This document shows positions 11,904 to 50,354 of a stretch of 50,497 nt of DNA, piece by piece. How positions within the stretch are numbered: position 1 is the stretch's first letter; every line of letters starts with the position of its first letter. The position numbers were made by a program, and so were the translations under genes. The notes below the pieces were generated by a model that saw only the letters and a program-made list of their open reading frames with translations, ran no database searches and had not been told where the DNA came from. The stretch comes from Candidatus Nomurabacteria bacterium (GTDB lineage: Bacteria; Patescibacteriota; Minisyncoccia; Phycocordibacterales; UBA2100). The stretch is taken from positions 1-50,497 of the forward strand of contig CALRFU010000006.1 of the NCBI GenBank assembly GCA_943356775.1, given 5' to 3'.

Positions 11904-11927
11904 ATTTTGTGCCGGAGGAAGGACTCG
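11904..11927 (-). repeat. Duplicated 3' end of tRNA-Leu(CAA)
   Basis: ATTTTGTGCCGGAGGAAGGACTCG matches 12078..12101 at 23 of 24 positions, starting at the CGA of the T-loop. Confidence 0.9.
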
Positions 11928-12083
11928 GCCAAGAACACTTTTTGTCGCCGTCGCGCCAAAAAGTTTCTCGGCCCTGCTCGCCCATCCCCATCTACTGATG
12001 GGGCCCCAGCACTCGCTTTCTCATCCCTCCCCGGCAGAAATCAGTAAAAGACCAGAGACATGCTCTGGCCTCAACTAATTTTG

Positions 12084-12164
12084 TGCCGGAGGAGGGACTC
12101 GAACCCTCATCCCTTGCGAGACACGATTTTGAGTCGTGCGCGTATACCATTCCGCCACTCCGGC
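12084..12164 (-). tRNA. tRNA-Leu(CAA)
   Basis: GCCGGAG/TCCGGC acceptor, CACGA-CT-CAA-AA-TCGTG anticodon arm, long variable arm, GGTTCGAGTCC; no encoded CCA. Confidence 0.95.
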
Positions 12165-13498: not shown

Positions 13499-14163
13499 CA
13501 GGCGTGGAGCATCTTCTTGGTCGTAACGCCATCCAGAAAGGAAAGGAGCGCATCACATGTGGCGCGAACCGATGCGAGAACAACCTTCTCATCAGAAGCT
13601 GACACATGACCGTCCAACATTTCGTGCCATGACCTATCCGTGCGGGAATGCGTGGTGAAGAACTGAAGCGCTTTCTCGCTGGTGATGCCGTATAACTTTT
13701 TCAGTCCGTCTTCTTTGGTAGAAGCGACTTCTGCAATCTGGTGTTTGTAGGCGGTCAGAGCTGCGAGACCCTTATTGATATCGGTGCTGCTCGTGAGACT
13801 AAGGAGCGTGTCTACTGCTTTCTTGGTACCCGCATTGGCTTTCGATAGTTTCAAATTCTTCTCTGTAAGTCCTAATGATTCGGAAAAGGTGACAAGCTGC
13901 CCAAGATGATTATTGGTTCCCTCCTCCTCGCCTCGAAGATTTGTCAGCATTGTCTGACGCATCGCAGCATCCTTGGTGTGGCTGTGTATACCACTCATGA
14001 AGCGCGGGAATGCGCCCTCAAGGTGATAATACTGTTTCATGTATTCTCGCAAATCGCTTTTGGTAAGCTTTCCCATAAGCCAATACTTGTAGAACGGATG
14101 TTTGAGCATCGACTTCTCTGTCACGATGGCGTGAATTTTCTCAAAGAGTTTTTTATTTTTCAT
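13495..14163 (-). CDS. CADD/PqqC/TenA-like haem-oxygenase-fold protein
   Basis: LKHPFYKYW...GKLT...YMKQYY...FPRFMS...NLRGEEEGTNNH...TKEDGLKKLYG...FFTTH resembles Chlamydia CADD (CT610). Confidence 0.8.
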   Translation of the reverse strand: MKNKKLFEKIHAIVTEKSMLKHPFYKYWLMGKLTKSDLREYMKQYYHLEGAFPRFMSGIHSHTKDAAMRQTMLTNLRGEEEGTNNHLGQLVTFSESLGLTEKNLKLSKANAGTKKAVDTLLSLTSSTDINKGLAALTAYKHQIAEVASTKEDGLKKLYGITSEKALQFFTTHSRTDRSWHEMLDGHVSASDEKVVLASVRATCDALLSFLDGVTTKKMLHAC

Positions 14164-14260
14164 AAAATATCAAAGCTATCCAGTAATGCTCCAATTCTAG
14201 CATCCAAATAGACTTTCTCAACAAGTAAATAGACGCGTGTTCATTCGCACTTCGTTTCTG

Positions 14261-14347
14261 GCGGGCCCACTAGGAATCGCCTCTCGCTCTGCTGAGCTCG
14301 AAACCTTCGCCCCCTCTTCGGGGGCTGCGGCCCGCGGTTCGATTCCT
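14261..14347 (-). mobile_element. tRNA-linked structured element downstream of tRNA-Trp
   Basis: 19-bp tRNA 3' duplicate (14261..14279 = 14375..14393), a 62-bp core identical to 15288..15349, and an inverted T-loop copy at 14336..14347. Confidence 0.7.
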
Positions 14348-14375
14348 GCGGTCTCCTCACTCACTCCGTTCGTTG

Positions 14376-14446
14376 CGGGCCCACTAGGAATCGAACCTAG
14401 GTCTGCTCTTTTGGAGAGAGATATTCTACCATTGAACTATGGACCC
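14376..14446 (-). tRNA. tRNA-Trp(CCA)
   Basis: GGGTCCA/TGGGCCC acceptor, CT-CCA-AA loop, CTAGG-TTCGATT-CCTAG T-arm. Confidence 0.93.
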
Positions 14447-14520
14447 TTGTCTTCCCGGCTTTCCGGTCCGCTAAGTATAGAGCCGCAAATGAGAATTAGA
14501 AAGTCTCCGGCTCCAAACTC

Positions 14521-14679
14521 TTATTTCTTAGCCTCCTTGTGCTTGGTATGAGCTTTACACCATTTGCAGTACTTCTTGAGCTCAATTTTGCGCGTGACAA
14601 GCTTCCGGTTCTTGCGAGACCAGTAGTTGACGCGGTTACACTTCGAACACGCGAGTCTGAAAAGTTGATCCTGTGACAT
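14521..14679 (-). CDS. rpmG: 50S ribosomal protein bL33, zinc-ribbon form
   Basis: MSQDQLFRLACSKCNRVNYWSRKN...IELKKYCKWCKAHTKHKE; start trimmed to ATG 14679. Confidence 0.95.
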   Translation of the reverse strand: MSQDQLFRLACSKCNRVNYWSRKNRKLVTRKIELKKYCKWCKAHTKHKEAKK

Positions 14680-14688
14680 GGGCGACAC

Positions 14689-14732
14689 TATACCACCACA
14701 CCAACCTTCAAGCAAAGTTGTGTGGTGGTATA
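14689..14732. promoter_or_regulatory. Hairpin overlapping the putative rpmG -10 box
   Basis: TATACCACCACA/TGTGGTGGTATA 12-bp stem plus CAAC/GTTG; minus-strand TATAGT at 14687..14692 lies 7 nt before the ATG. Confidence 0.55.
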
Positions 14733-14755
14733 CAGAAAGCCCAGCAATTACGCAA

Positions 14756-15196
14756 CTATACGAACGCAGAGGTGTGCTGTATAAAAAGTTGGCAAATCTT
14801 ATTCCAGGGTCCGAAACTCCCGCCATCGCCCACCAATGTCCTCATGAGGGTATCCACCACAAGCCACCCGGCAAGAATGATTACGAGACCGACGGCGACA
14901 TTCATGAATATCTCTTTTGCCCGCGATATCTCACCACCCGCAACGCTCGTGAGATAGAGCCACCCTGCCCACGCGAAGAGCACCGCGGAGAGGAATACTG
15001 CGATGTAGATGCCAGTGTTGAGCACATTTTGCGCGACCGTCGCGAGGTCACAGACTGATTGGCATCCGCCGACATTATTACATGTCTCGGGCACAATCTG
15101 CCCGGGGAGCGCATTGGCGGCGAGCGCTATCGAGGGAGCAACAAAAAAGATAACTAGGAAGAGGGCAGCTATGCGAAGCGGTAGTCTGCGTACCAT
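14756..15196 (-). CDS. VirB2/TrbC-like pilin (CPR T4SS-pilin type)
   Basis: Signal-like N-terminus ending ALA, a Cys pair, and two hydrophobic helices joined by YLTSVAGGEISRAKEIF. Confidence 0.7.
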   Translation of the reverse strand: MVRRLPLRIAALFLVIFFVAPSIALAANALPGQIVPETCNNVGGCQSVCDLATVAQNVLNTGIYIAVFLSAVLFAWAGWLYLTSVAGGEISRAKEIFMNVAVGLVIILAGWLVVDTLMRTLVGDGGSFGPWNKICQLFIQHTSAFV

Positions 15197-15232
15197 GGAA
15201 TTAGTTTAGCATGGGAAAATCCCTTCTTGACG

Positions 15233-15261
15233 CAAAAAGCTCCCTTCGCGGGAGCTTTTTG
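15233..15261 (-). terminator. Intrinsic terminator
   Basis: CAAAAAGCTCCC-TTCGC-GGGAGCTTTTTG. Confidence 0.75.
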
Positions 15262-15353
15262 TATTGAGTGCGCCGGGTTGGATTCGGCTCTCGCTCTGCT
15301 GAGCTCGAAACCTTCGCCCCCTCTTCGGGGGCTGCGGCCCGCGGTTCGAATCC
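15254..15353 (-). mobile_element. tRNA-linked structured element downstream of tRNA-Tyr
   Basis: 33-bp exact duplicate (15254..15286 = 15388..15420), a 62-bp core identical to the tRNA-Trp element, and an inverted T-loop at 15343..15353. Confidence 0.7.
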
Positions 15354-15360
15354 CGATGCC

Positions 15361-15400
15361 CAATACAAAAAGCGCCTCGCTAGAGACGCTTTTTGTATTG
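15361..15400 (-). terminator. Intrinsic terminator after tRNA-Tyr
   Basis: CAATACAAAAAGCG...CGCTTTTTGTATTG, a 14-bp stem. Confidence 0.75.
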
Positions 15401-15402
15401 AG

Positions 15403-15485
15403 TGCGCCGGGTTGGATTCGAACCAACGAAGACCGGAGTCAATTGGTTTACAGCCAATCCCCTTTGACCGCTTGGGTACCGACGC
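15403..15485 (-). tRNA. tRNA-Tyr(GTA)
   Basis: GCGTCGG/CCGGCGC acceptor, ATTGG-CT-GTA-AA-CCAAT, long variable arm, GGTTCGAATCC. Confidence 0.95.
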
Positions 15486-15494
15486 AGACGAATA

Positions 15495-18206
15495 TTATGC
15501 ACTAACAGGGCTCTTTGCGCGAGAGCGTGCCCCCCGGTTTCTCTCGGGTCCCTTGCGGACATCGAACGAGAAGTCTCCTTTTCCGTCGGTTCCCGCCTTC
15601 ACATCAAAGTCTACCGACACCGAGCCACCCTCCAAGACACCTCGGGCAACCATCAGATTCGCGACTGGAGTGAGTATCTTTGTCTGAATGAGGCGCTTGA
15701 GCGGGCGAGCACCGTATTGCGGGCTGTAGCCTTCTTTTGCAAGATGTTCGATGGCCGCATCGGTGAAGGTGAGCGCGATATGCTTTTCCTCCAAACGCTT
15801 GGCCACGATATCCACCTGCATGCGTACGATGTCCATAATTGCACTTGTAGAAAGTATGTTGAAGAGGAGTATCTCATCGAGGCGGTTGAGGAATTCTGGT
15901 CGGAAGAATTCTTTGAGCGAGCCCATGACCTTATCCTTCACTTGGTCATACCGCTCGCCCTCGGTCTTTGAGAGGCCGCTCCCGAAACCCAAGCCTGACA
16001 TTTTGTCGATGTGCTCGGAGCCGATGTTGGAGGTCATGACAATGACGCTGTTCTTGAAATTGACCACCCGACCTTTCGCATCCGTCAGCCGGCCGTTGTC
16101 GAGAACCTGGAGCAATACATTGAACACTTCCGGATGTGCTTTTTCTATTTCGTCGAAGAGGACCACTGAATACGGACGATGGCGCACGAGCTCCGTGAGG
16201 CCTCCGCCTTCGTCGTGACCGACGTATCCGGGCGGGCTGCCGATCATTTTTGAGACGGAGTGTTTCTCCATGTATTCCGACATATCGACACGGATGAGTG
16301 ATTTGTCTGAGTTGAAGAGGAATTCTGCAAGAGAGCGTGTGAGCTCGGTCTTTCCGACTCCGGTCGGACCGAGGAAAAGGAACGAGCCGACAGGGCGGTT
16401 GGGATCTGAGATACCCGCGCGACTGCGCTTGATAGCATCGGAAACTTTCTGCACCGCCTCGTCCTGGCCGACGATGCGCTTTCTAAGCTCGATTTCCATG
16501 CGTGAGAGCTTCTCGGCTTCTTCTTCAAGCATTCGCGAGACAGGCACTCCCGTCCACCGGGAGACAACCGCGGCGATATCTTCTTCGGTAATTTCTTCTT
16601 TGAGAACCCGCCGAGTCTGCTGAAGCTTCTTCAGGCGCTTCTGCGCAGTTTCAATTTCTTTTTCAAGAAGCGGTATGGTGCCGTACCGGAGCTCTGCGGT
16701 CTTAGTGAAATCCGCGGCGGCCTCTGCCGCGTCTGCCACAATACGGGCCTGCTCGAGTTCGCCCTTGGCGCGCTTGATTTCTACGAGCGTATCTTTTTCA
16801 TTCTTCCATTTCATTTCGAGCTCGCGGGTGGAATCGCGTAAGTCGGCAATTTCTTTCTCGATAGTCTTTGTGCGTATGCGAGCCTTGCCGTCTTCGGCTT
16901 CAGATTCCTTCTTCAGTGCCTCGCGTTCTATTTCGAGACGTCGCACCTTTCGATGAGCCTCCTCTAAAATAGGCGGCTTGTTCTCAAGCGAGAGCCTGAG
17001 CGCAGAAGATGCTTCGTCGATGAGGTCGATGGCTTTATCCGGCAAGAACCGCTCGGTGATGTAGCGTGCCGAGAGCTGTACGGCCGCTACCATCGCATCA
17101 TCGGTGATGTGTACCCCGTGATAGAGCTCATAGCGCTCCTTGAGGCCGCGCAAAATGGCGACGGTATCATCGATTGAAGGTTCGTTGACATAGACAGGCT
17201 GGAAGCGGCGTGTGAGCGCCGCATCATGCTCGATATGCTTTTGGTACTCTTTGATAGTGGTTGCACCTATAACGCGGATATCGCCGCGGGCAAGGGCGGG
17301 CTTCAGCATGTTGGACGCATCCATAGAGCCTTCCGCGGCGCCGGCGCCTACGAGTGTGTGTATCTCGTCGATAAAAAGTATGATTTTCCCCTCGGAGCGC
17401 TCCACCTCCTTCATGACAGCCTTGAGTCGCTCTTCGAATTCACCGCGATATTTTGTACCCGCTATCAAAAGACCCAAATCGAGCTGGATGATTTCCTTCC
17501 CACGCAACGACTCGGGGACATCCGAAGCGGCGATACGCTGCGCCAGACCTTCGGCGACCGCAGTCTTGCCGACGCCGGCCTCTCCGATCAGTATCGGATT
17601 GTTTTTGGTACGACGCGAAAGAATCTGTATCACGCGCGTTATTTCGGTATCACGTCCGATGACGGGGTCGAGCTTGTTCTCGCGAGCACGCTCGGTGAGG
17701 GAACGCGCAAATTTCGCAAGCGCACGCGGCTTGGAAGGAGCATCGGTGTCGCGAATCTTCCCCTCCTTGATATCAGTGAGCACGCGTGCAAGAGCGGCAC
17801 GGTCAATGCGGAAGCGTGCAAGGACATCAGAGGCGGGTCCGGGATGTTCTACGATGCCGAGCAAAAGATGCTCAGGTGAGACAAATTGATCATTGAAAGA
17901 CGCCGCGATGCGGGGAGCCGCCTCGAAAACGCGTACGAGCTCCGGCGTGAGGTACAGCTGAAATGACGGCGAAACGGCAGTATTGCCCGAAGCACCCTCA
18001 ATTAATTCCAGAATGGAATCCGAGAGGTGCGACACATCAATCTCCCCCTGTTCAAGCATGGGTACCACCATCGTCTCTTCCTGCATCAGAAGAGCGGCAA
18101 AAAGGTGCAGCGTGGAAACCTGATTATGCCCCCGCTCCACGGCGAGCTGGTGAGAACGATGAATCGCCTCTTTCGCTTTTATAGTGTAATTGTTGAATGG
18201 TGCCAT
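15495..18206 (-). CDS. clpB: ATP-dependent chaperone ClpB
   Basis: Clp N-domain, GEAGVGKT and GPTGVGKT Walker A motifs, long coiled-coil middle domain, [18 protein letters not shown]. Confidence 0.93.
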
Positions 18207-22338: not shown

Positions 22339-23064
22339 ATGGGAATTAAGTATGCGGTTAATTCATCATTCTTTGAAAAATGGTCTCACGAGAGTGCTTA
22401 CATCTTGGGATTCTTATATGCCGACGGCAGTTTAGAAGATTCCCCTTATATACGAGGAAGATACCTCCGCGTTACGAGCACAGACAGAGACAGGATTGAT
22501 CTTATTAGAAAATCATTGTCATCAGGTCACAGCGTTGTGAATAGGAAAATCGTTGGCAACCGAAAGCAAAGTTTCTTGCTGCGCATTGGGAGTCACTCGT
22601 TATACGAGAGTCTCATAAAACACGGATTAACTCCTCGAAAATCCCTGACCATGAAATTTCCGAATGTTCCCAAAAAGTATCTGGGAGCGTTTGTGTGTGG
22701 GTACTTTGACGGAGACGGCTGCGTATATATCGAAAAAAGAAAGAACGGCACCTTTGGACGTTTAATAACAATTTTCACTAGCGGGAGTCGAGCTTTCTTT
22801 GAAAAGATGTACTCTGTTTTACTTAAGAATGGACTGACCGAGAGCAAGAGTATTTATAGACATAGCAATAAAAGAAATTATCAACTTAGATATTCCACTA
22901 CAAACAGCGTTCTTCTTTTCGGTTTGATGTATAAAGATACCTTACACAGAAGGTTACCTATGATGAGAAAATACGCTATATTTAAGCAGTACTTCGAGGT
23001 GCGGTCGACAGTTCTCACAAATAAAGGACGTCAAATCCTAAAAGAAGGCCCGATGGCGAAGTAG
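22339..23064 (+). CDS. Free-standing two-motif LAGLIDADG endonuclease-like protein
   Basis: AYILGFLYADGS and AFVCGYFDGDGCV motifs; AT-rich; stop codon lies inside tRNA-Cys. Confidence 0.88.
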   Translation: MGIKYAVNSSFFEKWSHESAYILGFLYADGSLEDSPYIRGRYLRVTSTDRDRIDLIRKSLSSGHSVVNRKIVGNRKQSFLLRIGSHSLYESLIKHGLTPRKSLTMKFPNVPKKYLGAFVCGYFDGDGCVYIEKRKNGTFGRLITIFTSGSRAFFEKMYSVLLKNGLTESKSIYRHSNKRNYQLRYSTTNSVLLFGLMYKDTLHRRLPMMRKYAIFKQYFEVRSTVLTNKGRQILKEGPMAK

Positions 23065-23119
23065 AAACGCGGGAGTCTGCAAAACTCTTATTGCGCGGGT
23101 GCAATTCCCGCTCGGGCCT
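23047..23119 (+). tRNA. tRNA-Cys(GCA)
   Basis: GGCCCGA/TCGGGCC acceptor with U discriminator, GGAGT-CT-GCA-AA-ACTCT, variant T-loop TGCAATT. Confidence 0.88.
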
Positions 23120-23174
23120 CAAATCGTATATAGTAGTAGTGTCGCCCTCCTTCGCCAAAGCTATGGAGGACAAA

Positions 23175-24132: not shown

Positions 24133-24338
24133 GGGCAGATGGCGAAATTGGCGAATCAGCTGATTCGTGGCTTGGCCATGAAAACGCGTCCTTTTCAAAG
24201 TGCTGGGGTGGCGAAATTGGTAGACGCGCCAGGCTTAGGACCTGGTCTCGCAAGAGGTGGAGGTTCGAGTCCTCTCCCCAGCACTTTGAACGGAACCTGG
24301 TCTCGCAAGAGGTGGAGGTTCGAGTCCTCTCCTGCCCA
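24133..24338 (+). pseudogene. Split tRNA-Leu remnant (5' part 24133..24151, 3' part 24295..24338) enclosing an intact tRNA-Leu
   Basis: GGGCAGA-TG-GCGAAATTGG pairs with the distal CCTGCCC-A; the anticodon loop is missing. Confidence 0.75.
24202..24283 (+). tRNA. tRNA-Leu(TAG)
   Basis: GCTGGGG/CCCCAGC acceptor, CCAGG-CT-TAG-GA-CCTGG, long variable arm, GGTTCGAGTCC. Confidence 0.95.
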
Positions 24339-24378
24339 CAAAACAAAATAACTGGCTCGTGCCAGTTATTTTGTTTTG
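24339..24378 (+). terminator. Perfect 18-bp hairpin, terminator-like
   Basis: CAAAACAAAATAACTGGC-TCGT-GCCAGTTATTTTGTTTTG. Confidence 0.75.
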
Positions 24379-24382
24379 CTGT

Positions 24383-24479
24383 GGACTCGAACAGGAAGGG
24401 GGTCGGGGAAACACTTGTTTCCCCGTGGAGGAAGGAATGGGAAAACCGTGGGTTTCCCAGAGGTTCGAGTCCTCTCCCC
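24383..24479 (+). mobile_element. tRNA-linked structured element downstream of tRNA-Leu(TAG)
   Basis: Inverted T-loop GGACTCGAAC at 24383..24392, two internal hairpins, and a 20-bp tRNA duplicate (24460..24479 = 24260..24279). Confidence 0.65.
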
Positions 24480-24492
24480 CTGACCCAAAAAT

Positions 24493-25409: not shown

Positions 25410-25856
25410 TCAGGCGTGTTCATCCTTCTTCTTCCCCCCCGAATGAGCCGCAAGGTACAGGATTATCCACACAACAATGATGCCTACGATGACGGATACT
25501 GTCCATGCCGCCTCCCGCGGGTGAAACTGGAAGAATTGTACGATGGCTAAAAGCACGACGAGCACAAAGAGAATCACGACCGACCACTCCATTATCTTGA
25601 TGGCTTCGGTCCGGTACGTCGGCCACGTCCCGAGGCGACAGAGCCATAATATAAATCCGAGTCCGTACGTAAGGAGCGCTACGGTGAGCATTATCCCGAC
25701 GAAAACGTTGAAAAGCCCTATCGCCTGAGTGAATGAAGTCCCGGCACCTGCGCTTGCACCTGCGCTTGTACTGACATCTCCCGCCTGCGCAAGCGCAGGA
25801 AATCCAAGTATGAACGGCGAAGCGAGCAGGCGTAAAAAAAATGGCGACATCCGCAT
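25410..25856 (-). CDS. Pilin-like membrane protein with three TM segments
   Basis: Signal ending AQA, then LTYGLGFILW...AIKIMEWSVVILFV; start trimmed to ATG 25856, just after the upstream stop. Confidence 0.62.
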   Translation of the reverse strand: MRMSPFFLRLLASPFILGFPALAQAGDVSTSAGASAGAGTSFTQAIGLFNVFVGIMLTVALLTYGLGFILWLCRLGTWPTYRTEAIKIMEWSVVILFVLVVLLAIVQFFQFHPREAAWTVSVIVGIIVVWIILYLAAHSGGKKKDEHA

Positions 25857-25863
25857 ATAATTT

Positions 25864-26250
25864 CTATTCGCCGGTAAATTGCGGAAATCCGGGATTGTCG
25901 GATGATGTCTGCACGACACCCGAGGTCGGACTATTGATGCTCCCGCCAAAAAGCGTACTTTGCAACAAGCGCAGAATACCCCAAATGGAGACCATGACGA
26001 AGAGTATGATGATGCCCCAGAAGAAGTACGCCCTCACTTTTTCTCCCCCATCGTCACTAAAATTCAATATGTTTGTCGAGATGCCGTAGAAGTAGACAAC
26101 GATGCCCGCCACGATGAGTACTGCCGTCGTGGCATCAAAAATGTCCACGATGTCAATAGCAAGCTCTTGAAAGTTGCGCGCTGCTTCGGCGGATGCGACG
26201 ACAGGTAACATCAGAGTAATCACGCCAGTCAATACCGTTAGCTTGTACAT
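25864..26250 (-). CDS. VirB2-like pilin
   Basis: Signal ending ASA; IVVYFYGI...FFWGIIILFVMVSIWGILRLLQSTLF, a clear paralogue of 24861..25229. Confidence 0.75.
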   Translation of the reverse strand: MYKLTVLTGVITLMLPVVASAEAARNFQELAIDIVDIFDATTAVLIVAGIVVYFYGISTNILNFSDDGGEKVRAYFFWGIIILFVMVSIWGILRLLQSTLFGGSINSPTSGVVQTSSDNPGFPQFTGE

Positions 26251-47279: not shown

Positions 47280-48287
47280 TTAATTAATCTCTATATCGAT
47301 GTGCCGTATGCCCGGATGGAGCTTGCGGATGCGCGCTTCGATTTCGTCTATTTTCTTGCCCATGAGACGCGGTATGCGGTCGGCATAATCGACGCAAAAC
47401 CGTTTGAACGCCTCATAATCGTCCCGGACTTCTTCAAACTGGTCGCTGAGCGAAGATTGCTGGAAAGCTTCACCGAAGAGCGCCGCCCCGTTGAATTCCA
47501 CGTCGCACTTAATACGGTACACGCCGAATCCCAGCACGACGGATTTGAAATCAATCACCTTTTCTATTGCCGGCTCGCGCAAGAGAAGCTCCTCTATCTC
47601 TTCCTGCAGGCTTTCTGGGATGGCGCGTCCCAAGAGATACGAGCGGTTCTTTATGATAAGCACGACGGCGACCACGCCGAGAAGCGTCGCGATGATAACG
47701 GAGCCTGCCGCGTCCCACAGAGGAGAGCCCGTATAGTACGAGAGAACGATGCTCACGGTTGCAATGAACACTCCGGTGACGGCGACCGCATCCTCGAGGA
47801 ATACGGCAAGTGTGGAGGGGTCGGCTTGCGCAAGCCGCCGCGCCCAGCGCATTCGCGGAAACATCTTTTTCAATTGAGTCGCGGCGACCCACAGGGTGTA
47901 TGACTCTATTGCGAACGCCACAATAAGCACAACAAAAACAATCCACGATATTTCTACCGGATGCGGATGCAGGAACGACTTGATGCCGTGATATGCCGTT
48001 ACCCCCGCGCCGACGAAAAATATTCCACAGGCTGAAATGAGCGCCCAAAAAGAAAGTTCGTTACCATAGCCATATTCAAAATCCTCATCGGCTTTTTTGA
48101 GCGAGCGACGCAAGCCGATAAGAAGCAGTATTTGATTCGCGGTGTCTGCGAGGCTGTGAATTGCCTCCGAGAACATGGAGCTTGAGCCGGACACCGCAGC
48201 AGCAAAGAACTTAATGATGGTAACGACCGTATTGCCGACGACCGCCGCCGCGACCGGTTTGAAGCTCAAAGTACTGTTGAGTGCCAT
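47280..48287 (-). CDS. Cation diffusion facilitator, ZnT9-like subfamily
   Basis: GSSSMFSEAIHSLADTANQ, YGYG, FLEDAVAVTG, and C-terminal IDEIEARIRKLHPGIRHIDIE; start trimmed to ATG 48287 because the longer ORF runs through tRNA-Ser. Confidence 0.88.
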   Translation of the reverse strand: MALNSTLSFKPVAAAVVGNTVVTIIKFFAAAVSGSSSMFSEAIHSLADTANQILLLIGLRRSLKKADEDFEYGYGNELSFWALISACGIFFVGAGVTAYHGIKSFLHPHPVEISWIVFVVLIVAFAIESYTLWVAATQLKKMFPRMRWARRLAQADPSTLAVFLEDAVAVTGVFIATVSIVLSYYTGSPLWDAAGSVIIATLLGVVAVVLIIKNRSYLLGRAIPESLQEEIEELLLREPAIEKVIDFKSVVLGFGVYRIKCDVEFNGAALFGEAFQQSSLSDQFEEVRDDYEAFKRFCVDYADRIPRLMGKKIDEIEARIRKLHPGIRHIDIEIN

Positions 48288-48290
48288 ATG

Positions 48291-48592: not shown

Positions 48593-48664
48593 GGCCCTAT
48601 CGTCTAACGGTTAGGACACATGCTTTTCAAGCATGGAACCCGGGTTCGATTCCCGGTAGGGTCA
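48593..48664 (+). tRNA. tRNA-Glu(TTC)
   Basis: GGCCCTA/TAGGGTC acceptor, CATGC-TT-TTC-AA-GCATG, CCGGG-TTCGATT-CCCGG. Confidence 0.95.
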
Positions 48665-50178
48665 CAAAATAGAACTTCGTCCAAAGAAAGAGCGGAACGC
48701 ACGCTCGCTTGGGGCGAGCGTGCGTGCATTTTGCCGCGGAGTGCCGCGGCGTATTCGGTCGGCGGCGGAATTCTGAAATGCATGGATTTGCTTTCAATAC
48801 TGGGGTTCGTTCCGACTTTCCGCACGAAATCGGAGATTTCGTGCAAGTTGTCGGACGAACTCAAAACCATGGCCTGTTTCGTATCCAAAACCCACTCCCG
48901 CAGGGGTTCGACCCAATTCTTTCGTCCGCGCTCAAAATCTTTCTTTTTCTCTTGCAAAGCGACGAGAGAGCGCATGAGCGCGTCTTTGCGCTTCAGATAA
49001 TTTTCTTTCGGTATATCGCCGTCGAGGTACGTTGAAACCAATTTGTCCATGCGCTCCTCGCTCGCTTTGATTTCTGAAGAAAGATTTTGTATCTCGCTTC
49101 CCGACGCGGTGGTTTCCTCGCGCTCCCACTCATCCACTTTGTTCAACATCCAGCCGGTGTATGTATCGGGAAGCGAGATAGTTTGAAGCCGTTCCTTGAT
49201 TTGACTTGCGAGCAAGTCTTCGCGCAAGTATTTGGCACCACAGTTGCCTTTCTTTTTCGTGCAACGGTAGTAGCGATATCTGCCACCCGACTTTCCTGTA
49301 GCCCACTGTGCAGTAAACATGCTCCCACATTCGGTGCAACGAAAAAGATTAGCGAAAGGAAAATCGTGCGTACCGCGTACCTTGCGACGCTTCTCCTTGC
49401 TCGCAAGGATTTTTTGAACGGCTTCAAACTGGCGCGGGGAAAGAATTGGCGCGAAGCTTCCGGGAAAATATTCGTCGTAGTGTTTTGTGAATCCGAGATA
49501 GGCGCGATTGGTGAGAATCCTTTTCACGGAAGCTTTGCCAAGTCGCGTCCCGGCCTTAGTAGCGATACCGAGGTCTTTCAGAAACTGTGCCATTGATACG
49601 AGCGTGTAGCTCCCTTTGGCGTATTCGTCGAACGCGTGAGCGATGATGCGCGACTTCACCACATCCGGTTCGATATTGCGCGTGCGCGGATTATTTACGT
49701 ACCCGAACGGCGCGCGAGTAAGCCACTCGCCACGGCGCAGTTTCTGGCGCATACCGCGGCGCGTGTTTTCGGCAAGATTGTCGGAATAATATTTGCTTTG
49801 GCCGAACGCCACTTGAAGCATAAAGAGCCCCTGCGGGGTGGGTTCAAACCAAAATGTCGGAAAACGCAAAGACACAATTTTGGAAGTGTCTACGGCGTAA
49901 ATGATGCGCCCACCGTCAATGCTATTTCGCGCGAGGCGATCGGGGTGCCACGCGATTATTCCGTTCGCCTCTCCGCGCTCAAGGCGCATTATCATTTCGC
50001 CGAACACTTCGCGCCCCGGTGTCTTTGCGCTTTTCGACTCTTGAAATTCTTTCAGAATTTCAAGATTTTCTCTGCTCGCAAATTCGCGTAGTTCGACAAG
50101 TTGAGCGGGAATACTCATTACCTGTTTGTCGTCAGGTTCGGTACTTTTGCGAGCGTAGAGAAAATATTTGTGCGCCAT
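48604..50178 (-). CDS. Large serine recombinase (catalytic, recombinase, zinc-ribbon and coiled-coil domains)
   Basis: YFLYARKSTE (catalytic Ser), DRLARN, APFGY, CTECG...YYRC...C. Likely start is ATG 50178 (524 aa). The stop lies antisense inside tRNA-Glu. Confidence 0.93.
   Translation of the reverse strand: MAHKYFLYARKSTEPDDKQVMSIPAQLVELREFASRENLEILKEFQESKSAKTPGREVFGEMIMRLERGEANGIIAWHPDRLARNSIDGGRIIYAVDTSKIVSLRFPTFWFEPTPQGLFMLQVAFGQSKYYSDNLAENTRRGMRQKLRRGEWLTRAPFGYVNNPRTRNIEPDVVKSRIIAHAFDEYAKGSYTLVSMAQFLKDLGIATKAGTRLGKASVKRILTNRAYLGFTKHYDEYFPGSFAPILSPRQFEAVQKILASKEKRRKVRGTHDFPFANLFRCTECGSMFTAQWATGKSGGRYRYYRCTKKKGNCGAKYLREDLLASQIKERLQTISLPDTYTGWMLNKVDEWEREETTASGSEIQNLSSEIKASEERMDKLVSTYLDGDIPKENYLKRKDALMRSLVALQEKKKDFERGRKNWVEPLREWVLDTKQAMVLSSSDNLHEISDFVRKVGTNPSIESKSMHFRIPPPTEYAAALRGKMHARSPQASVRSALSLDEVLFCDPTGNRTRVPCLKSMCPNR
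48662..48791 (+). repeat. Left 130-bp inverted repeat
   Basis: Reverse complement of 50225..50354 with one mismatch; includes the last 3 nt of tRNA-Glu and the recombinase 3' region. Confidence 0.95.
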
Positions 50179-50211
50179 ACTTTTGCATGATAGCACTTGC
50201 AAAAGTATGGC
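50174..50211. promoter_or_regulatory. Perfect 14-bp palindrome covering the recombinase start codon and putative -10 box
   Basis: GCCATACTTTTGCA-10 nt-TGCAAAAGTATGGC; minus-strand TATCAT lies upstream of the ATG. Confidence 0.75.
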
Positions 50212-50224
50212 TCGATATTCGGGT

Positions 50225-50354
50225 GCAAATCCATGCATTTCAGAATTCCGCCGCCGACCGAATACGCCGCGGTACTCCGCGGCAAAATGCACGCACGCTC
50301 GCCCCAAGCGAGCGTGCGTTCCGCTCTTTCTTTGGACGAAGTTCTATTTTGTGA
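50225..50354 (-). repeat. Right 130-bp inverted repeat
   Basis: GCAAATCCATGCATTTC...GTTCTATTTTGTGA, 129/130 identical to the left copy. Confidence 0.95.

Follow-up and report, generated by a model that had tools for sequence, protein, structure and literature searches.

tRNA genes are classic landing sites for genomic islands of kilobase size. The ssrA-specific genomic islands of Dehalococcoides are associated with a large serine recombinase of the DsiB/CcrB type, staphylococcal SCC and pseudo-SCC being cited as relatives, and those without integration genes have been proposed to move in cis or in trans (PMC3146451). These islands are the closest precedent for the elements described here: both insert midway within the T-loop, are bounded by a ~20-bp direct repeat of the 3' end of the RNA gene, form tandem arrays downstream and have a conserved motif directly ahead of every repeat, and the recombinase lies at the 3' end of the gene on the reverse strand, as it does at a tRNA-Glu gene here. 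The Dehalococcoides islands differ in being kilobases long and confined to ssrA, with no reported folded module or inverted copy of the target, whereas the present elements are mostly 95-160 bp long, occupy 12 tRNA isotypes and a tmRNA and contain a three-way junction that covaries; for them the connection with a serine recombinase is circumstantial only. Crossover in the T-loop is also made by the tyrosine integrases of tRNA-integrating phages and islands, of which mycobacteriophage Ms6 is an example (PMC1762012). Islands of this type, like our elements, carry the 3' part of the tRNA from the T-loop on, restore the gene and leave a partial duplicate; the elements here, in contrast, have no adjacent integrase gene, are two orders of magnitude smaller, share one core across many isotypes and bear a structured module on the element side. 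Classes of sublocation among tRNA integration sites were reportedly distinguished by Williams in 2002.

Folded single-strand recombination sites, in which the structure and not the stem sequence is conserved, are known from integron attC and CTX phage attP(+). There, as here, inverted and direct target-like copies pair into a mimic of a duplex, which a variable structure closes, and cassettes with and without cargo stack in arrays, but our elements have no GTTRRRY / RYYYAAC core sites, no link to IntI or Xer, and a target in the T-loop. Classification as an integron attC was rejected, the consensus lacking the R''/L''...L'/R' boxes and the scanned proteins of the window including no tyrosine recombinase. 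The ends of IS200/IS605, their gene-less PATE derivatives and REP elements need a Y1 HUH transposase, have constant left ends and produce no target duplication. They are, like the present elements, small, hairpin-bearing and non-autonomous, and they recognise the target through base pairing with a short guide of their own at the foot of a hairpin, for which the equivalent placement here is AACC 5' of GCGGGCCGC, with GGTT as target; here, however, the target is duplicated, the left ends are variable and no Y1 HUH transposase was found in the window.

The 178-bp repeats of Escherichia coli tyrT (rtT RNA) each hold the last ~19 nt of the tRNA, and Rfam has an rtT family. These are likewise repeated units downstream of tRNA-Tyr with a tRNA 3' end, but they form a tandem at one locus by unequal crossing-over, with no anti-T-loop and no fold shared across isotypes, and the module described below has no Rfam match to rtT. 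Transposition of tRNA introns in Thermoproteales archaea was reportedly described by Fujishima et al. in 2010. Those are near-identical short insertions at equivalent positions of different tRNAs, the T-loop region included; they are situated within the tRNA, from which the splicing endonuclease cuts them at a bulge-helix-bulge motif, whereas here the tRNA is complete upstream and the hosts are bacterial. Group I introns are marked by a U-G pair at the 5' splice site, a terminal G, an internal guide that pairs to both exons and a catalytic P3-P9 core of at least about 200 nt. The guide order and the terminal G (47/49 members) are present here; a group I intron was nonetheless rejected, as U55 would pair with A, the module has only ~74 nt, Intron_gpI is unmatched and the tRNA is complete without splicing. 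In the guide RNAs of TnpB, IscB and Cas12 (omega RNA or homing crRNA) a scaffold adjoins a guide of ~16-20 nt that matches a target flanked by a PAM/TAM, and an effector gene lies in the element or the genome. The layout here would fit, with a scaffold, then a 19-21-nt copy of the tRNA end, GGTT ahead of the target and GAGAGG ahead of the self copy; the first seven guide bases, however, are sequestered in helix P1, no effector was seen in the 50-kb window and the Rfam guide families are unmatched.

Here we describe a pair of 62-bp cores which belong to an apparently undescribed family of folded insertions ~100-150 bp in length, located in Saccharibacteria-like bacteria within the T-loops of tRNA and tmRNA genes, a description of which was not found in a full-text literature search.

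Elements downstream of tRNA-Trp and tRNA-Tyr

The window, that is the whole stretch of 50,497 nucleotides that was analyzed, contains two identical 62-bp segments (14281-14342 and 15288-15349), both on the minus strand directly 3' of a tRNA gene (Table 1). No further match to the core occurs in the window at up to three mismatches (shuffles lead one to expect none), and the similarity of the two copies extends to 74 nt at 96% identity (14273-14346 vs 15280-15353). A sequence-only reading had already reported the identical cores, host-matched starts and regenerated tRNA ends, all of which were confirmed. On the tRNA strand the modules begin with GGAATCGAACC (Trp) and GGATTCGAACC (Tyr), precise reverse complements of the respective T-loops GGTTCGATTCC and GGTTCGAATCC, and behind each module the 3' part of its tRNA is repeated from C56 on. 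The repeat is perfect over 33 bp at the Tyr locus (15254-15286 and 15388-15420) and over 19 bp at the Trp locus (14261-14279 and 14375-14393), where ~14 diverged bases follow; the CCA of the Trp duplicate, as opposed to CAA in the gene, is read as ...GCCA vs ...GCAA.

Table 1 Features of the tRNA-Trp and tRNA-Tyr loci in the window (DR, direct repeat)
Feature	Position	Strand	Basis
tRNA-Trp(CCA), intact host gene	14375..14446	-	ARAGORN; Rfam tRNA 65.9 bits
Trp DR1, tRNA 3' part C56 to C74, completes the functional tRNA	14375..14393	-	Direct-repeat family D1
Trp left arm, short class without terminator	14347..14374	-	
Trp anti-T-loop GGAATCGAACC, reverse complement of host G52-C62	14336..14346	-	
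Trp core	14280..14335	-	Covariance-model match 14273-14346, 104.6 bits; covariation
Trp DR2, displaced original tRNA 3' part (C56 to C74) plus CA, reads ...GCCA	14259..14279	-	
tRNA-Tyr(GTA), intact host gene	15402..15485	-	ARAGORN; Rfam tRNA 57.9 bits
Tyr DR1, 33 bp, C56 to tRNA end plus 14-nt trailer	15388..15420	-	Direct-repeat family D3, 100% identity
Tyr left arm	15354..15387	-	Inverted repeat I2; fold; terminator test
Tyr anti-T-loop GGATTCGAACC	15343..15353	-	
Tyr core	15287..15342	-	Covariance-model match 15280-15353, 101.5 bits
Tyr DR2, displaced original 3' part	15254..15286	-	Alignment with L005/L006; contig joints in runs X5, X6
Original tRNA-Tyr terminator AAAAAGCTCCCGCGAAGGGAGCTTTTT, still attached to DR2	15233..15260	-	

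Part of the Trp left arm is complementary to DR2, and a Trp element in another contig (L065) has a homologous left arm; the first 7 nt of the Trp anti-T-loop pair with DR2 to form helix P1. The Trp core then runs GCGGGCC GCA, hairpin 1 (6 bp, GAAGA loop), GAA GGUUUCGA, hairpin 2 (AGCA loop) and GAGAGG; the sole difference in the Tyr core is the last base before DR2. The Tyr left arm and the tail of DR1 create a new terminator-like hairpin of 18-19 bp (arms 15361-15378 and 15383-15400), which differs from the original terminator in the central 13-14 nt and is followed by GGCATCG, similar to the 5' acceptor strand of the tRNA. A 94-nt "tRNA-His" called in the window is an example of the false tRNA calls to which such elements give rise.

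Family, hosts and insertion point

The family comprises 66 copies on about 60 contigs, all in the orientation of the tRNA, and was drawn from three Saccharibacteria MAGs and 58 true metagenome loci; the metagenome pattern gave 60 matches, two of which (L013, L063) are chance matches. As this pattern held GCGGGCCGCAG and CGAAGGTYTCGAG fixed, the invariance of these columns is partly built in. Tabulation of the adjacent genes supports and extends the proposal of a non-autonomous mini-element that follows different tRNAs with host-matched ends: the neighbours are always tRNA or tmRNA genes, namely 12 tRNA isotypes and one tmRNA, with insertion at U55|C56. In all 35 copies with a recognisable DR1 the repeat begins at C56, after GGTT, AGTT or GGTC, and from this fixed start base it extends over 8-33 nt, typically 18-21 nt. 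The order within an insertion is a fresh tRNA 3' part (C56 to about 74), usually a terminator of its own, the ~74-nt module and the old 3' part. The insertions lie at the equivalent point of the T-loop and rebuild the tRNA 3' end, and the gene still works, since each insertion opens with a fresh copy of that part and the tRNA stays intact. Inserts without genes measure about 95-160 bp and those with cargo up to 2.5 kb.

Cores within a genome differ by 1, 4, 7, 7, 9, 9 or 11 positions, against a between-genome median of 12. Frequently, the displaced 3' end has decayed or contains an interruption (L019, L027, L038, L049). CCA follows DR2 in 4 of 35 loci, the Trp locus of the window among them, and DR1 in one of 35, a signature so weak that a retro-copy of a mature tRNA was rejected. 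A MITE was rejected as well: what looks like an inverted repeat is the T-loop of the host itself and changes from host to host, the sites are exclusively tRNA or tmRNA genes, and the duplication spans 8-33 nt from a fixed base instead of the short, fixed-length target duplication expected. Viral contigs, phage records and plasmid records held no match to the element.

Fold and covariation of the module

The module of ~74 nt adopts a three-way-junction fold, and its two hairpins show strong compensatory covariation. Paired cells make up 95-96%, compared with 80% in shuffles and 26-48% in slid controls, and double-sided changes number 162-179 against about 49; 32 distinct stems occur for hairpin 1 and 33 for hairpin 2, while the loops (GANGA and ANYA) and the junction sequences are conserved. 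The Trp elements of the window and of L065 are deeply diverged and have kept the fold by compensatory changes. The two hairpins give no strand signal in a wobble test (3-4 G-U vs 2-3 A-C among more than 430 cells), helix P2 retains G-U pairs that change only to G-C, and the tRNA-sense strand folds better than the antisense strand by 4.1 kcal/mol in 48 of 49 members. A different element, located after tRNA-Leu(CAA), also adopts a Y fold, closed by a mimic of the acceptor/T-stem (z = -5.5). The window has one more distinct core, behind tRNA-Leu(TAG).

In Rfam 15, searched with positions 13800-15900 at E values up to 10, only the two tRNAs and sub-threshold chance matches were returned and the module matched no family; a search of 14 loci at gathering thresholds returned tRNA and tmRNA alone. 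Upstream of the module there is no consistent promoter: a -10-like hexamer lies 7-17 nt upstream in about 20 of 46 loci and is absent for both window copies. Sequencing runs labelled "RNA" that share words with the region contain foreign tRNA-Trp or L33 homologues and leave the element uncovered.

Anti-T-loop and left arm

The left 11-mer follows at least nine T-loop variants. It differs from the T-loop of its host by a mean of 0.97 mismatches vs 2.02 by chance (0 of 2000 permutations as good), matching exactly in 19 of 33 cases and with at most one mismatch in 28 of 33. Its AACC is conserved to at least 90% although unpaired in the module, and the last base before the junction is G in 47 of the 49 members. 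The segment can pair with either DR1 or DR2; seven of its bases pair with the displaced half of the T-loop and close the three-way junction.

Between the tRNA and the module, 24 of 35 distinct left arms contain a terminator-like hairpin with a T-rich tail. This tells against the second suggestion of the sequence-only reading, in which a module made of RNA would fold back onto the pre-tRNA T-arm, given that the hairpin intervenes and that the anti-T-loop also serves to close the junction of the module itself. For a given left arm, the displaced acceptor end of its own element is a better pairing partner than the others are (p = 2.7e-4). An origin of the left arm by fold-back was rejected, since complementarity past about 9 nt is only modestly above that of non-cognate pairs; the inverted copy of the tRNA end is rarely faithful beyond this length.

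Empty alleles and assembly

The tRNA-Tyr site is precisely empty in two related strains (L005, L006), where the 134 bp from 15254 to 15387 are absent and one repeat is left, and runs X5 and X6 gave contigs (89.6 kb and 5.9 kb) with the same absence. In a syntenic species (L010) 27 nt separate tRNA-Tyr from the next gene. Both Tyr haplotype groups hold filled and empty alleles.

An artefact of assembly or binning that duplicated a tRNA-flanking segment has a negligible probability in our judgement. Several short-read contigs do end within the core (L006-L008), but the layout of the window recurs in independent assemblies (L001-L004) that stem from different samples and were made with different programs, in two runs the depth of the 62-nt core unitig is about double that of its neighbours (28.6 vs 13-25 and 29.9 vs 11-16), and more than 60 unrelated contigs show the same architecture with different host tRNAs.

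Cargo, arrays and recombinases

Some copies close insertions of 0.6-2.5 kb with cargo or form arrays. At one locus (L024) two modules with the same repeat stand 2467 bp apart, and the stretch flanked by the repeat holds three genes (DUF5677, a methyltransferase and bPH_2) and ends in a module; at another (L025) an array places two modules around a P-loop gene. The T-loop insertion, at whose far boundary the 3' end of the gene is directly repeated, the tandem arrays and the cargo-bearing members all agree with the ssrA island type. On the other hand, no element has a large serine recombinase encoded on its attL side, such genes occurring only elsewhere; the mini-elements contain no ORF and the cargo of L024 no recombinase. 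Serine recombinase homologues stand beside elements in two of 63 loci (L070, L020), and a LAGLIDADG protein near elements in one of 63. Within the window a large serine recombinase gene (48604-50307) faces and abuts tRNA-Glu; exact-protein look-ups gave no match for a recombinase island past the end of the window, which is also the end of the contig. Genes for HUH transposase, TnpB or reverse transcriptase were not seen in the 50-kb window.

Possible origin and movement of the elements

The reading we prefer, in which we place roughly even confidence, is that both cores represent copies of a miniature integrative cassette that is non-autonomous and has the T-loops of tRNA and tmRNA genes as its specific target. 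It is plausible that an integrase makes the T-loop crossover. The cassette would be inserted and removed at the T-loop in trans, by a site-specific recombinase whose gene lies elsewhere, the best candidate being a large serine recombinase of the CcrB/DsiB type such as the one abutting tRNA-Glu. Because the element-borne 3' part equals that of the target, integration would regenerate the target site, which would permit arrays and easy excision. The folded module and the anti-T-loop would be the recognition structure on the element side, most likely read on the tRNA-sense single strand. Several findings sit uneasily with such a cassette, among them the lack of a recombinase within mini-elements and the scarcity of homologues nearby. 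A cassette that brings its own tRNA 3' end should break the new tRNA on a change of isotype, yet 12 isotypes are occupied, with host-specific repeats and inverted copies, and the diverged Trp elements of the window and L065 look like lasting selection at one locus and not like a decaying scar. Since both haplotype groups hold both alleles, the Tyr polymorphism could have arisen by loss through the 33-bp repeats and not by gain. To our knowledge, the sites of serine and tyrosine recombinases have no need for covarying hairpins, so that the fold is not explained by recombinase precedent. The covarying fold and the host-matched anti-T-loop are unexplained by known systems and leave scope for a mechanism of the single-strand or guide-like kind, or for a role as RNA.

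A structured small RNA, retained by the host and mimicking the neighbouring tRNA, is a rather unlikely alternative. The transcript would consist of left arm, module and duplicated 3' end in a Y shape whose closing helix resembles the acceptor/T region, and it might serve tRNA-handling enzymes as, for example, a substrate or decoy; the duplications would be a mere trace of the origin of the gene. We consider it distinctly unlikely that the element is a guide-bearing mobile element acting as single-stranded RNA or DNA, with the 11-nt anti-T-loop as guide or splint across U55|C56; AACC would pair with GGUU upstream and GGAWUCG with CGAWUCC downstream, and the fold would be a catalytic or protein-binding scaffold. 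With the same low probability, the module would be the active part of a guide-bearing mobile element of a new kind: the folded strand of ~74 nt would splint U55|C56 of any tRNA or tmRNA gene while the insertion chemistry places a copy of the target's 3' end to either side, and the use of a single core at 12 isotypes would be accounted for; in a variant, the RNA would provide a splint and a spare 3' fragment for tRNAs. Guide logic of this sort has precedents in P1/P10 of group I introns, the guide sequences of IS200/IS605, CTX phage attP and integron attC. The strong covariation and the conserved loops and junctions argue for a small RNA, but hairpins without wobble bias are unusual for an RNA made from one strand and are what would be expected of folded single-stranded DNA; the better folding of the sense strand is consistent with both. 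An RNA is also suggested by the G-U pairs of helix P2, the pairing of left arms with their own displaced acceptor end, the upstream hexamers, the Y-shaped tRNA-Leu(CAA) element and the retention of fold and left arm in orthologous Trp elements of distant lineages, and is contradicted by the terminator that usually stands ahead of the module, the lack of a consistent promoter (neither window copy has one), the absence of the Tyr copy from viable close strains, the frequent decay or interruption of the displaced 3' end and the use of the module to close cargo-bearing insertions. An 11-mer that is complementary to the uninterrupted target and tracks its variants, the conserved and unpaired AACC, the terminal G and the ability of one segment to pair with DR1 or DR2 all speak for a guide; the module, however, is smaller than any known self-splicing core, lacks the U-G pair at the putative 5' junction and matches no ribozyme, intron or guide-RNA family at E values up to 10. 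The window likewise shows none of the enzymes that might be expected (HUH transposase, TnpB, reverse transcriptase), and insertion of the IS200/IS605 type gives no target duplication and constant left ends.

It is very unlikely that the elements are by-products of replication or repair, in which template switching at palindromes around the tRNA 3' end (the near-palindromic T-loop and the terminator) would have left direct-inverted-direct copies and a pre-existing core would have been copied by microhomology and homogenised by gene conversion. The junctions coincide with the limits of the universally shared T-loop sequence (11 nt left, 7 nt right), the inverted copy of the tRNA end adjoins a palindromic terminator, and the window cores, 1 kb apart, do not differ from one another, in contrast to orthologous sites in other species. 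Such a process leaves unexplained why two hairpins have evolved by compensatory changes over the long term, why the architecture is reproduced at 12 isotypes and tmRNA and why there are cargo-bearing versions, and it fits poorly with the central difference between the Tyr terminators and the limited fidelity of the inverted copy.

Implications

The elements yield tRNA fragments and false tRNA calls, and they break short-read assemblies at tRNA loci. They display the logic of genomic islands, with insertion in the T-loop and a rebuilt 3' end, at a size of only about 100-150 bp, and their fold has been kept across many ultra-small CPR lineages. If the miniature cassette is moved by a recombinase, it would be a minimal natural attP-like cassette whose fold should reveal the recognition feature of the enzyme; if the anti-T-loop is a guide, the element would amount to a programmable module for insertion in very compact form.

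Two related elements at tRNA 3' ends

The minus strand carries, in order, ClpB, tRNA-Tyr, a T4SS-pilin-like gene, rpmG (L33), tRNA-Trp and a TENA-family gene. Both tRNAs are intact according to Rfam (Tyr 57.9 bits, Trp 65.9 bits), and a repeat lies directly 3' of each. Positions 14281-14342 and 15288-15349 are identical, with no third copy in the window and 0 expected by chance, and the likeness of the two copies stretches to 74 nt. On the tRNA strand the order of parts is the same at both loci: the tRNA, ending ...GGTT/CGAWTCC...3' end (the 3' part being DR1), a left arm, an anti-T-loop, a 56-nt core and a second copy of the tRNA 3' part, again starting at C56 (DR2). The anti-T-loop, GGAATCGAACC at Trp and GGATTCGAACC at Tyr, is a perfect reverse complement of the T-loop of its host. 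DR1 and DR2 have 33 nt in common at Tyr and 19 nt plus about 14 diverged nt at Trp, where the duplicate ends in ...GCCA vs. ...GCAA in the gene copy. The 62-bp identity, the placement at tRNA 3' ends, the reverse-complement T-loop, the regenerated 3' end and the CCA/CAA contrast, all described in the sequence-only reading, were thus borne out.

Polymorphism among strains

Alleles were compared among contigs encoding an identical pilin-like protein, from several independent assemblies. One contig (L002) has the layout of the window, and three of a sister haplotype (L001, L003 and L004) have both elements with one base changed in each core. The empty alleles that the earlier reading had suggested looking for are present at tRNA-Tyr: contigs L005 and L006 lack exactly 134 bp, with a single copy of the 33-nt repeat left, while retaining the Trp element, and the same skip occurs in 89.6-kb and 5.9-kb contigs of two further sequencing runs, X5 and X6 (33 ambiguous letters). 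In two other runs the 62-nt core assembles as a unitig of its own, with about double the depth of its surroundings. An assembly artefact is excluded. Filled and empty tRNA-Tyr alleles are found within both haplotype groups, so that loss through the repeats, and not gain alone, may lie behind the polymorphism.

In the X5 and X6 contigs the anticodon stem of tRNA-Trp (window 14404-14423) differs at eight positions, in blocks 14404-14408 and 14418-14423, and the downstream element is identical, which suggests that the tRNA body alone was replaced or converted. A comparable swap distinguishes loci L019 and L051, where a whole tRNA-Gln is exchanged between conserved flanks.

A family of elements with host-matched ends

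A 22-mer of the central hairpin retrieved three GTDB genomes, all Candidatus Saccharibacteria, in which copies follow tRNA-Tyr or tRNA-Trp or form part of a decayed array. A pattern with the hairpin left free gave 60 metagenome loci, 58 of them true, and a covariance model built from 49 distinct sequences found 66 copies in the sequences searched, including the two in the window and three overlooked by the pattern. Every copy has the orientation of the upstream tRNA-type gene, which may be tRNA-Tyr, Trp, Met, Asp, Gln, Glu, Arg, Lys, Leu, Ser, Gly or Val, or in one case (L022) tmRNA. At the 35 loci with a recognisable DR1 this repeat always starts at C56 after GGTT, AGTT or GGTC; its exact match is typically 18-21 nt long (range 8-33), and the DR1-to-DR2 spacing is mostly 134-147 bp (range 94-158).

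The 11-mer at the left edge is the reverse complement of host G52-C62, exactly in 19 of 33 loci and with at most one mismatch in 28. It follows at least nine T-loop variants (TTCGAAT, TTCGATT, TTCAAAT, TTCGAGT, TCCGATT and others), and 0 of 2000 permutations matched as well; thus the tailoring of ends to the host tRNA, noted from the two copies of the window, is a property of the family.

Some members have further peculiarities. L011 (7540-7720), L036 (~4590) and L053 (~102) are without a recognisable upstream tRNA and have in common a TTCGAACTTCGTYCAAWA(C/A)ACACCGYA motif at the place of DR1; in L011 another element stands in tandem, and its core is a different one, closed by GGGATTCGAAGCC. 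Similar 18-20-nt hairpin insertions (GCCTNNCGGCAGGCAGGCCT-like) follow C61-C62-N-T, at matching positions, in the displaced 3' ends of a tRNA-Ser (L038, 11284-11330) and a tRNA-Arg (L049, minus strand, downstream of 29-102); they may be a second, nested mini-insertion. Of 35 tRNA genes in these genomes, 33 have C after the discriminator and 20 have CA; CCA almost never stands there.

Fold of the module and the left arm

The tRNA-strand consensus, GGAWUCG AACC GCG GGCC GCA G-NNNNN-GANGA-NNNNN-C GAA GGUY UCGA G-NNN(N)-ANYA-(N)NNN-C GAGAGG CGAWUCC, forms a three-way junction of four helices: P1, in which the anti-T-loop pairs with the displaced T-loop half, P2 (GGCC/GGUY), hairpin 1 and hairpin 2. 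Alignment cells are paired in 95-96% of cases vs. 80% when shuffled and 26-48% in slid controls, and double-sided changes number 162-179 vs. about 49 when shuffled, with 32 distinct stems for hairpin 1 and 33 for hairpin 2. As to which strand folds, two lines of observation are relevant. The hairpins have hardly any wobble pairs, G-U being not in excess over A-C, in agreement with folded DNA or with pairing being required of both strands. Two G-U pairs of P2 are kept, changing to G-C only, and the tRNA-sense strand folds better by 4.1 kcal/mol (48 of 49 members). No Rfam 15 family matched the module.

Right after DR1, the left arm of 24 of the 35 distinct loci has a hairpin and T-rich tail that would provide the tRNA with a new terminator; its original one, and the trailer, stay with DR2. 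A short-arm class of about 29 nt, without terminator, includes the Trp elements of the window and of L065, a distant lineage (L33 50%, ClpB 64% identical) whose Trp left arm is nonetheless clearly homologous to that of the window. Complementarity between the final ~20 nt of the arm and the displaced acceptor end is higher within a locus than between loci (p = 2.7e-4), in a patchy pairing.

Spread, cargo and candidate recombinases

A syntenic species (L010) is without the Tyr element, and in L061 tRNA-Tyr and its element are inverted together as a unit. Cores differ at 1-11 positions within a genome (1 for the window pair) vs. a median of 12 between genomes, and hairpin-2 stems sort by genome, not isotype: CTC/GAG occurs twice in the window and TTGC/GCAA twice in L061, and other stems are present in L010 and L065 (both at Trp) and in L009 (at Tyr). 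Hence the core moves, or is converted, between tRNAs of one lineage, some sites (e.g. Trp) being old.

Larger versions exist. In L024 an 18-nt repeat lies on both sides of 2467 bp encoding a DUF5677 protein, a methyltransferase and a bPH_2 protein, with a module at the end of the stretch and a gene-less copy upstream, and a tRNA-Ser array in L025 has partial tRNA copies, a truncated GIY-YIG gene and a P-loop gene between two modules. The GIY-YIG nuclease ORF (13991-14227, minus strand, 78 aa), missing the N-terminal part of the domain, has the partial tRNA-Ser copies on one side and a T-loop-type repeat on the other, and a module follows closely downstream.

The large serine recombinase of the window overlaps tRNA-Glu in antisense with its 3' end, at the 3' end of the tRNA, and the source contig ends just past it, inside that island, the window corresponding to 1-50497 of the record in reversed orientation; other strains (L072) have different sequence after tRNA-Glu, with an encoded CCA. 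L070 has a homologue directly behind DR2, and L020 has one at 1.3 kb from an element. The LAGLIDADG_3 ORF overlaps the start of tRNA-Cys with its end and has a homologue in one among 63 loci (L060).

Candidate genes, tRNAs and other tRNA-end insertions in the window
Feature	Position	Strand	Description
tRNA-Leu(CAA) element	11909-12082	minus	Downstream of tRNA
3'-part copy in this element	11909-11927		19 nt from C56, 1 mismatch
tRNA-Leu(CAA)	12083-12164		
Small secreted or membrane protein	14756-15196	minus	Weak T4SS pilin family match, below curated cut-off
LAGLIDADG_3 ORF	22339-23064	plus	Free-standing, endonuclease-like, 241 aa
tRNA-Cys	23047-23120		
tRNA-Leu(TAG)	24202-24284		
tRNA-Leu(TAG) element	24285-24490	plus	Downstream of tRNA
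Partial tRNA copy in this element	~24296-24337		Anticodon stem onward
tRNA-His call in this element	24392-24485		94 nt, ARAGORN
Small secreted or membrane protein	25410-25949	minus	Weak T4SS pilin family match, below curated cut-off
tRNA-Glu	48593-48665		
Large serine recombinase	48604-50307	minus	Resolvase + Recombinase + Zn_ribbon_recom

Other insertions at tRNA ends

The tRNA-Leu(CAA) element is a different one of the same design: a terminator, a 12-nt inverted acceptor/T-stem copy (GCCGGGGAGGGA), an unrelated two-arm core and the 3'-part copy. Its fold is a Y (z = -5.5) in which a 14-bp acceptor/T-stem mimic forms the closing helix, and the sister strain L001 has wholly different sequence at this site. 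At tRNA-Leu(TAG), after the partial tRNA copy come a terminator, the T-loop in inverted form (GTGGACTCGAAC), a third core type and a T-arm/3'-end copy; the tRNA-His called there is unsupported by the Rfam tRNA model. Relative to window ~48283-48290, L072 has a 2.4-kb insertion (417-2830) right after tRNA-Ser, with two ORFs without Pfam match and an 8-bp flanking repeat (TCCGCATA) of the extreme 3' end of the tRNA. It represents another class of insertion at tRNA ends, at the neighbouring gene.

Possible mechanism

In the explanation ranked first, a site-specific recombinase acts in trans to move the element, a miniature integrative cassette. Integration of an element whose own 3' part equals that of the target would regenerate the target, which would explain the arrays and easy loss. 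It gives no account of the covarying fold on the element side, of the kept inverted host-matched T-loop, including the unpaired AACC (at least 90% conserved), or of how one core gains the correct 3' end and inverted copy with each new isotype. The 11-mer could pair with the target in its uninterrupted form, through its 3' part upstream of the junction and through its 5' part downstream. A group I internal guide has this order, and IS200/IS605 guide logic is similar; the geometry is suggestive. Host-derived sequence is limited by G52 on the left and C56 on the right, an offset of 4 nt that would be the product expected of a T-loop cut with a 4-nt 3' overhang; shared microhomology would give the same limits.

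A tRNA-mimic small RNA is a credible alternative, in keeping with the covarying pairs, the greater stability of the sense strand, the age of orthologous copies and a Y shape that an acceptor-like helix closes; this shape recurs in the unrelated tRNA-Leu(CAA) element. However, the element is dispensable among strains, terminators precede the module, displaced ends have decayed and cargo-bearing versions exist. A purely passive origin by template switching would leave the long-term structural selection unexplained.

Relation to known systems

The closest documented system is that of the Dehalococcoides ssrA islands, which have a 20-bp repeat of the 3' end, tandem arrays with a conserved motif just upstream of each repeat and a ~540-aa CcrB-like serine recombinase beside attL on the reverse strand, and for whose gene-poor members mobilisation by others has been proposed (PMC3146451). 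The repeat, arrays, upstream motif and gene-poor members are common to these islands and the present family, and their recombinase is placed like the one at tRNA-Glu in the window. No match to the family was found in viral contigs or in phage and plasmid records, and no description of it in searches of the full-text literature. A T-loop integrative element regenerating an RNA gene is an already known kind; as far as established, the novelty of the family lies in how small the element is, in a covarying module that has been conserved, in an anti-T-loop matched to the host and in the wide range of isotypes.
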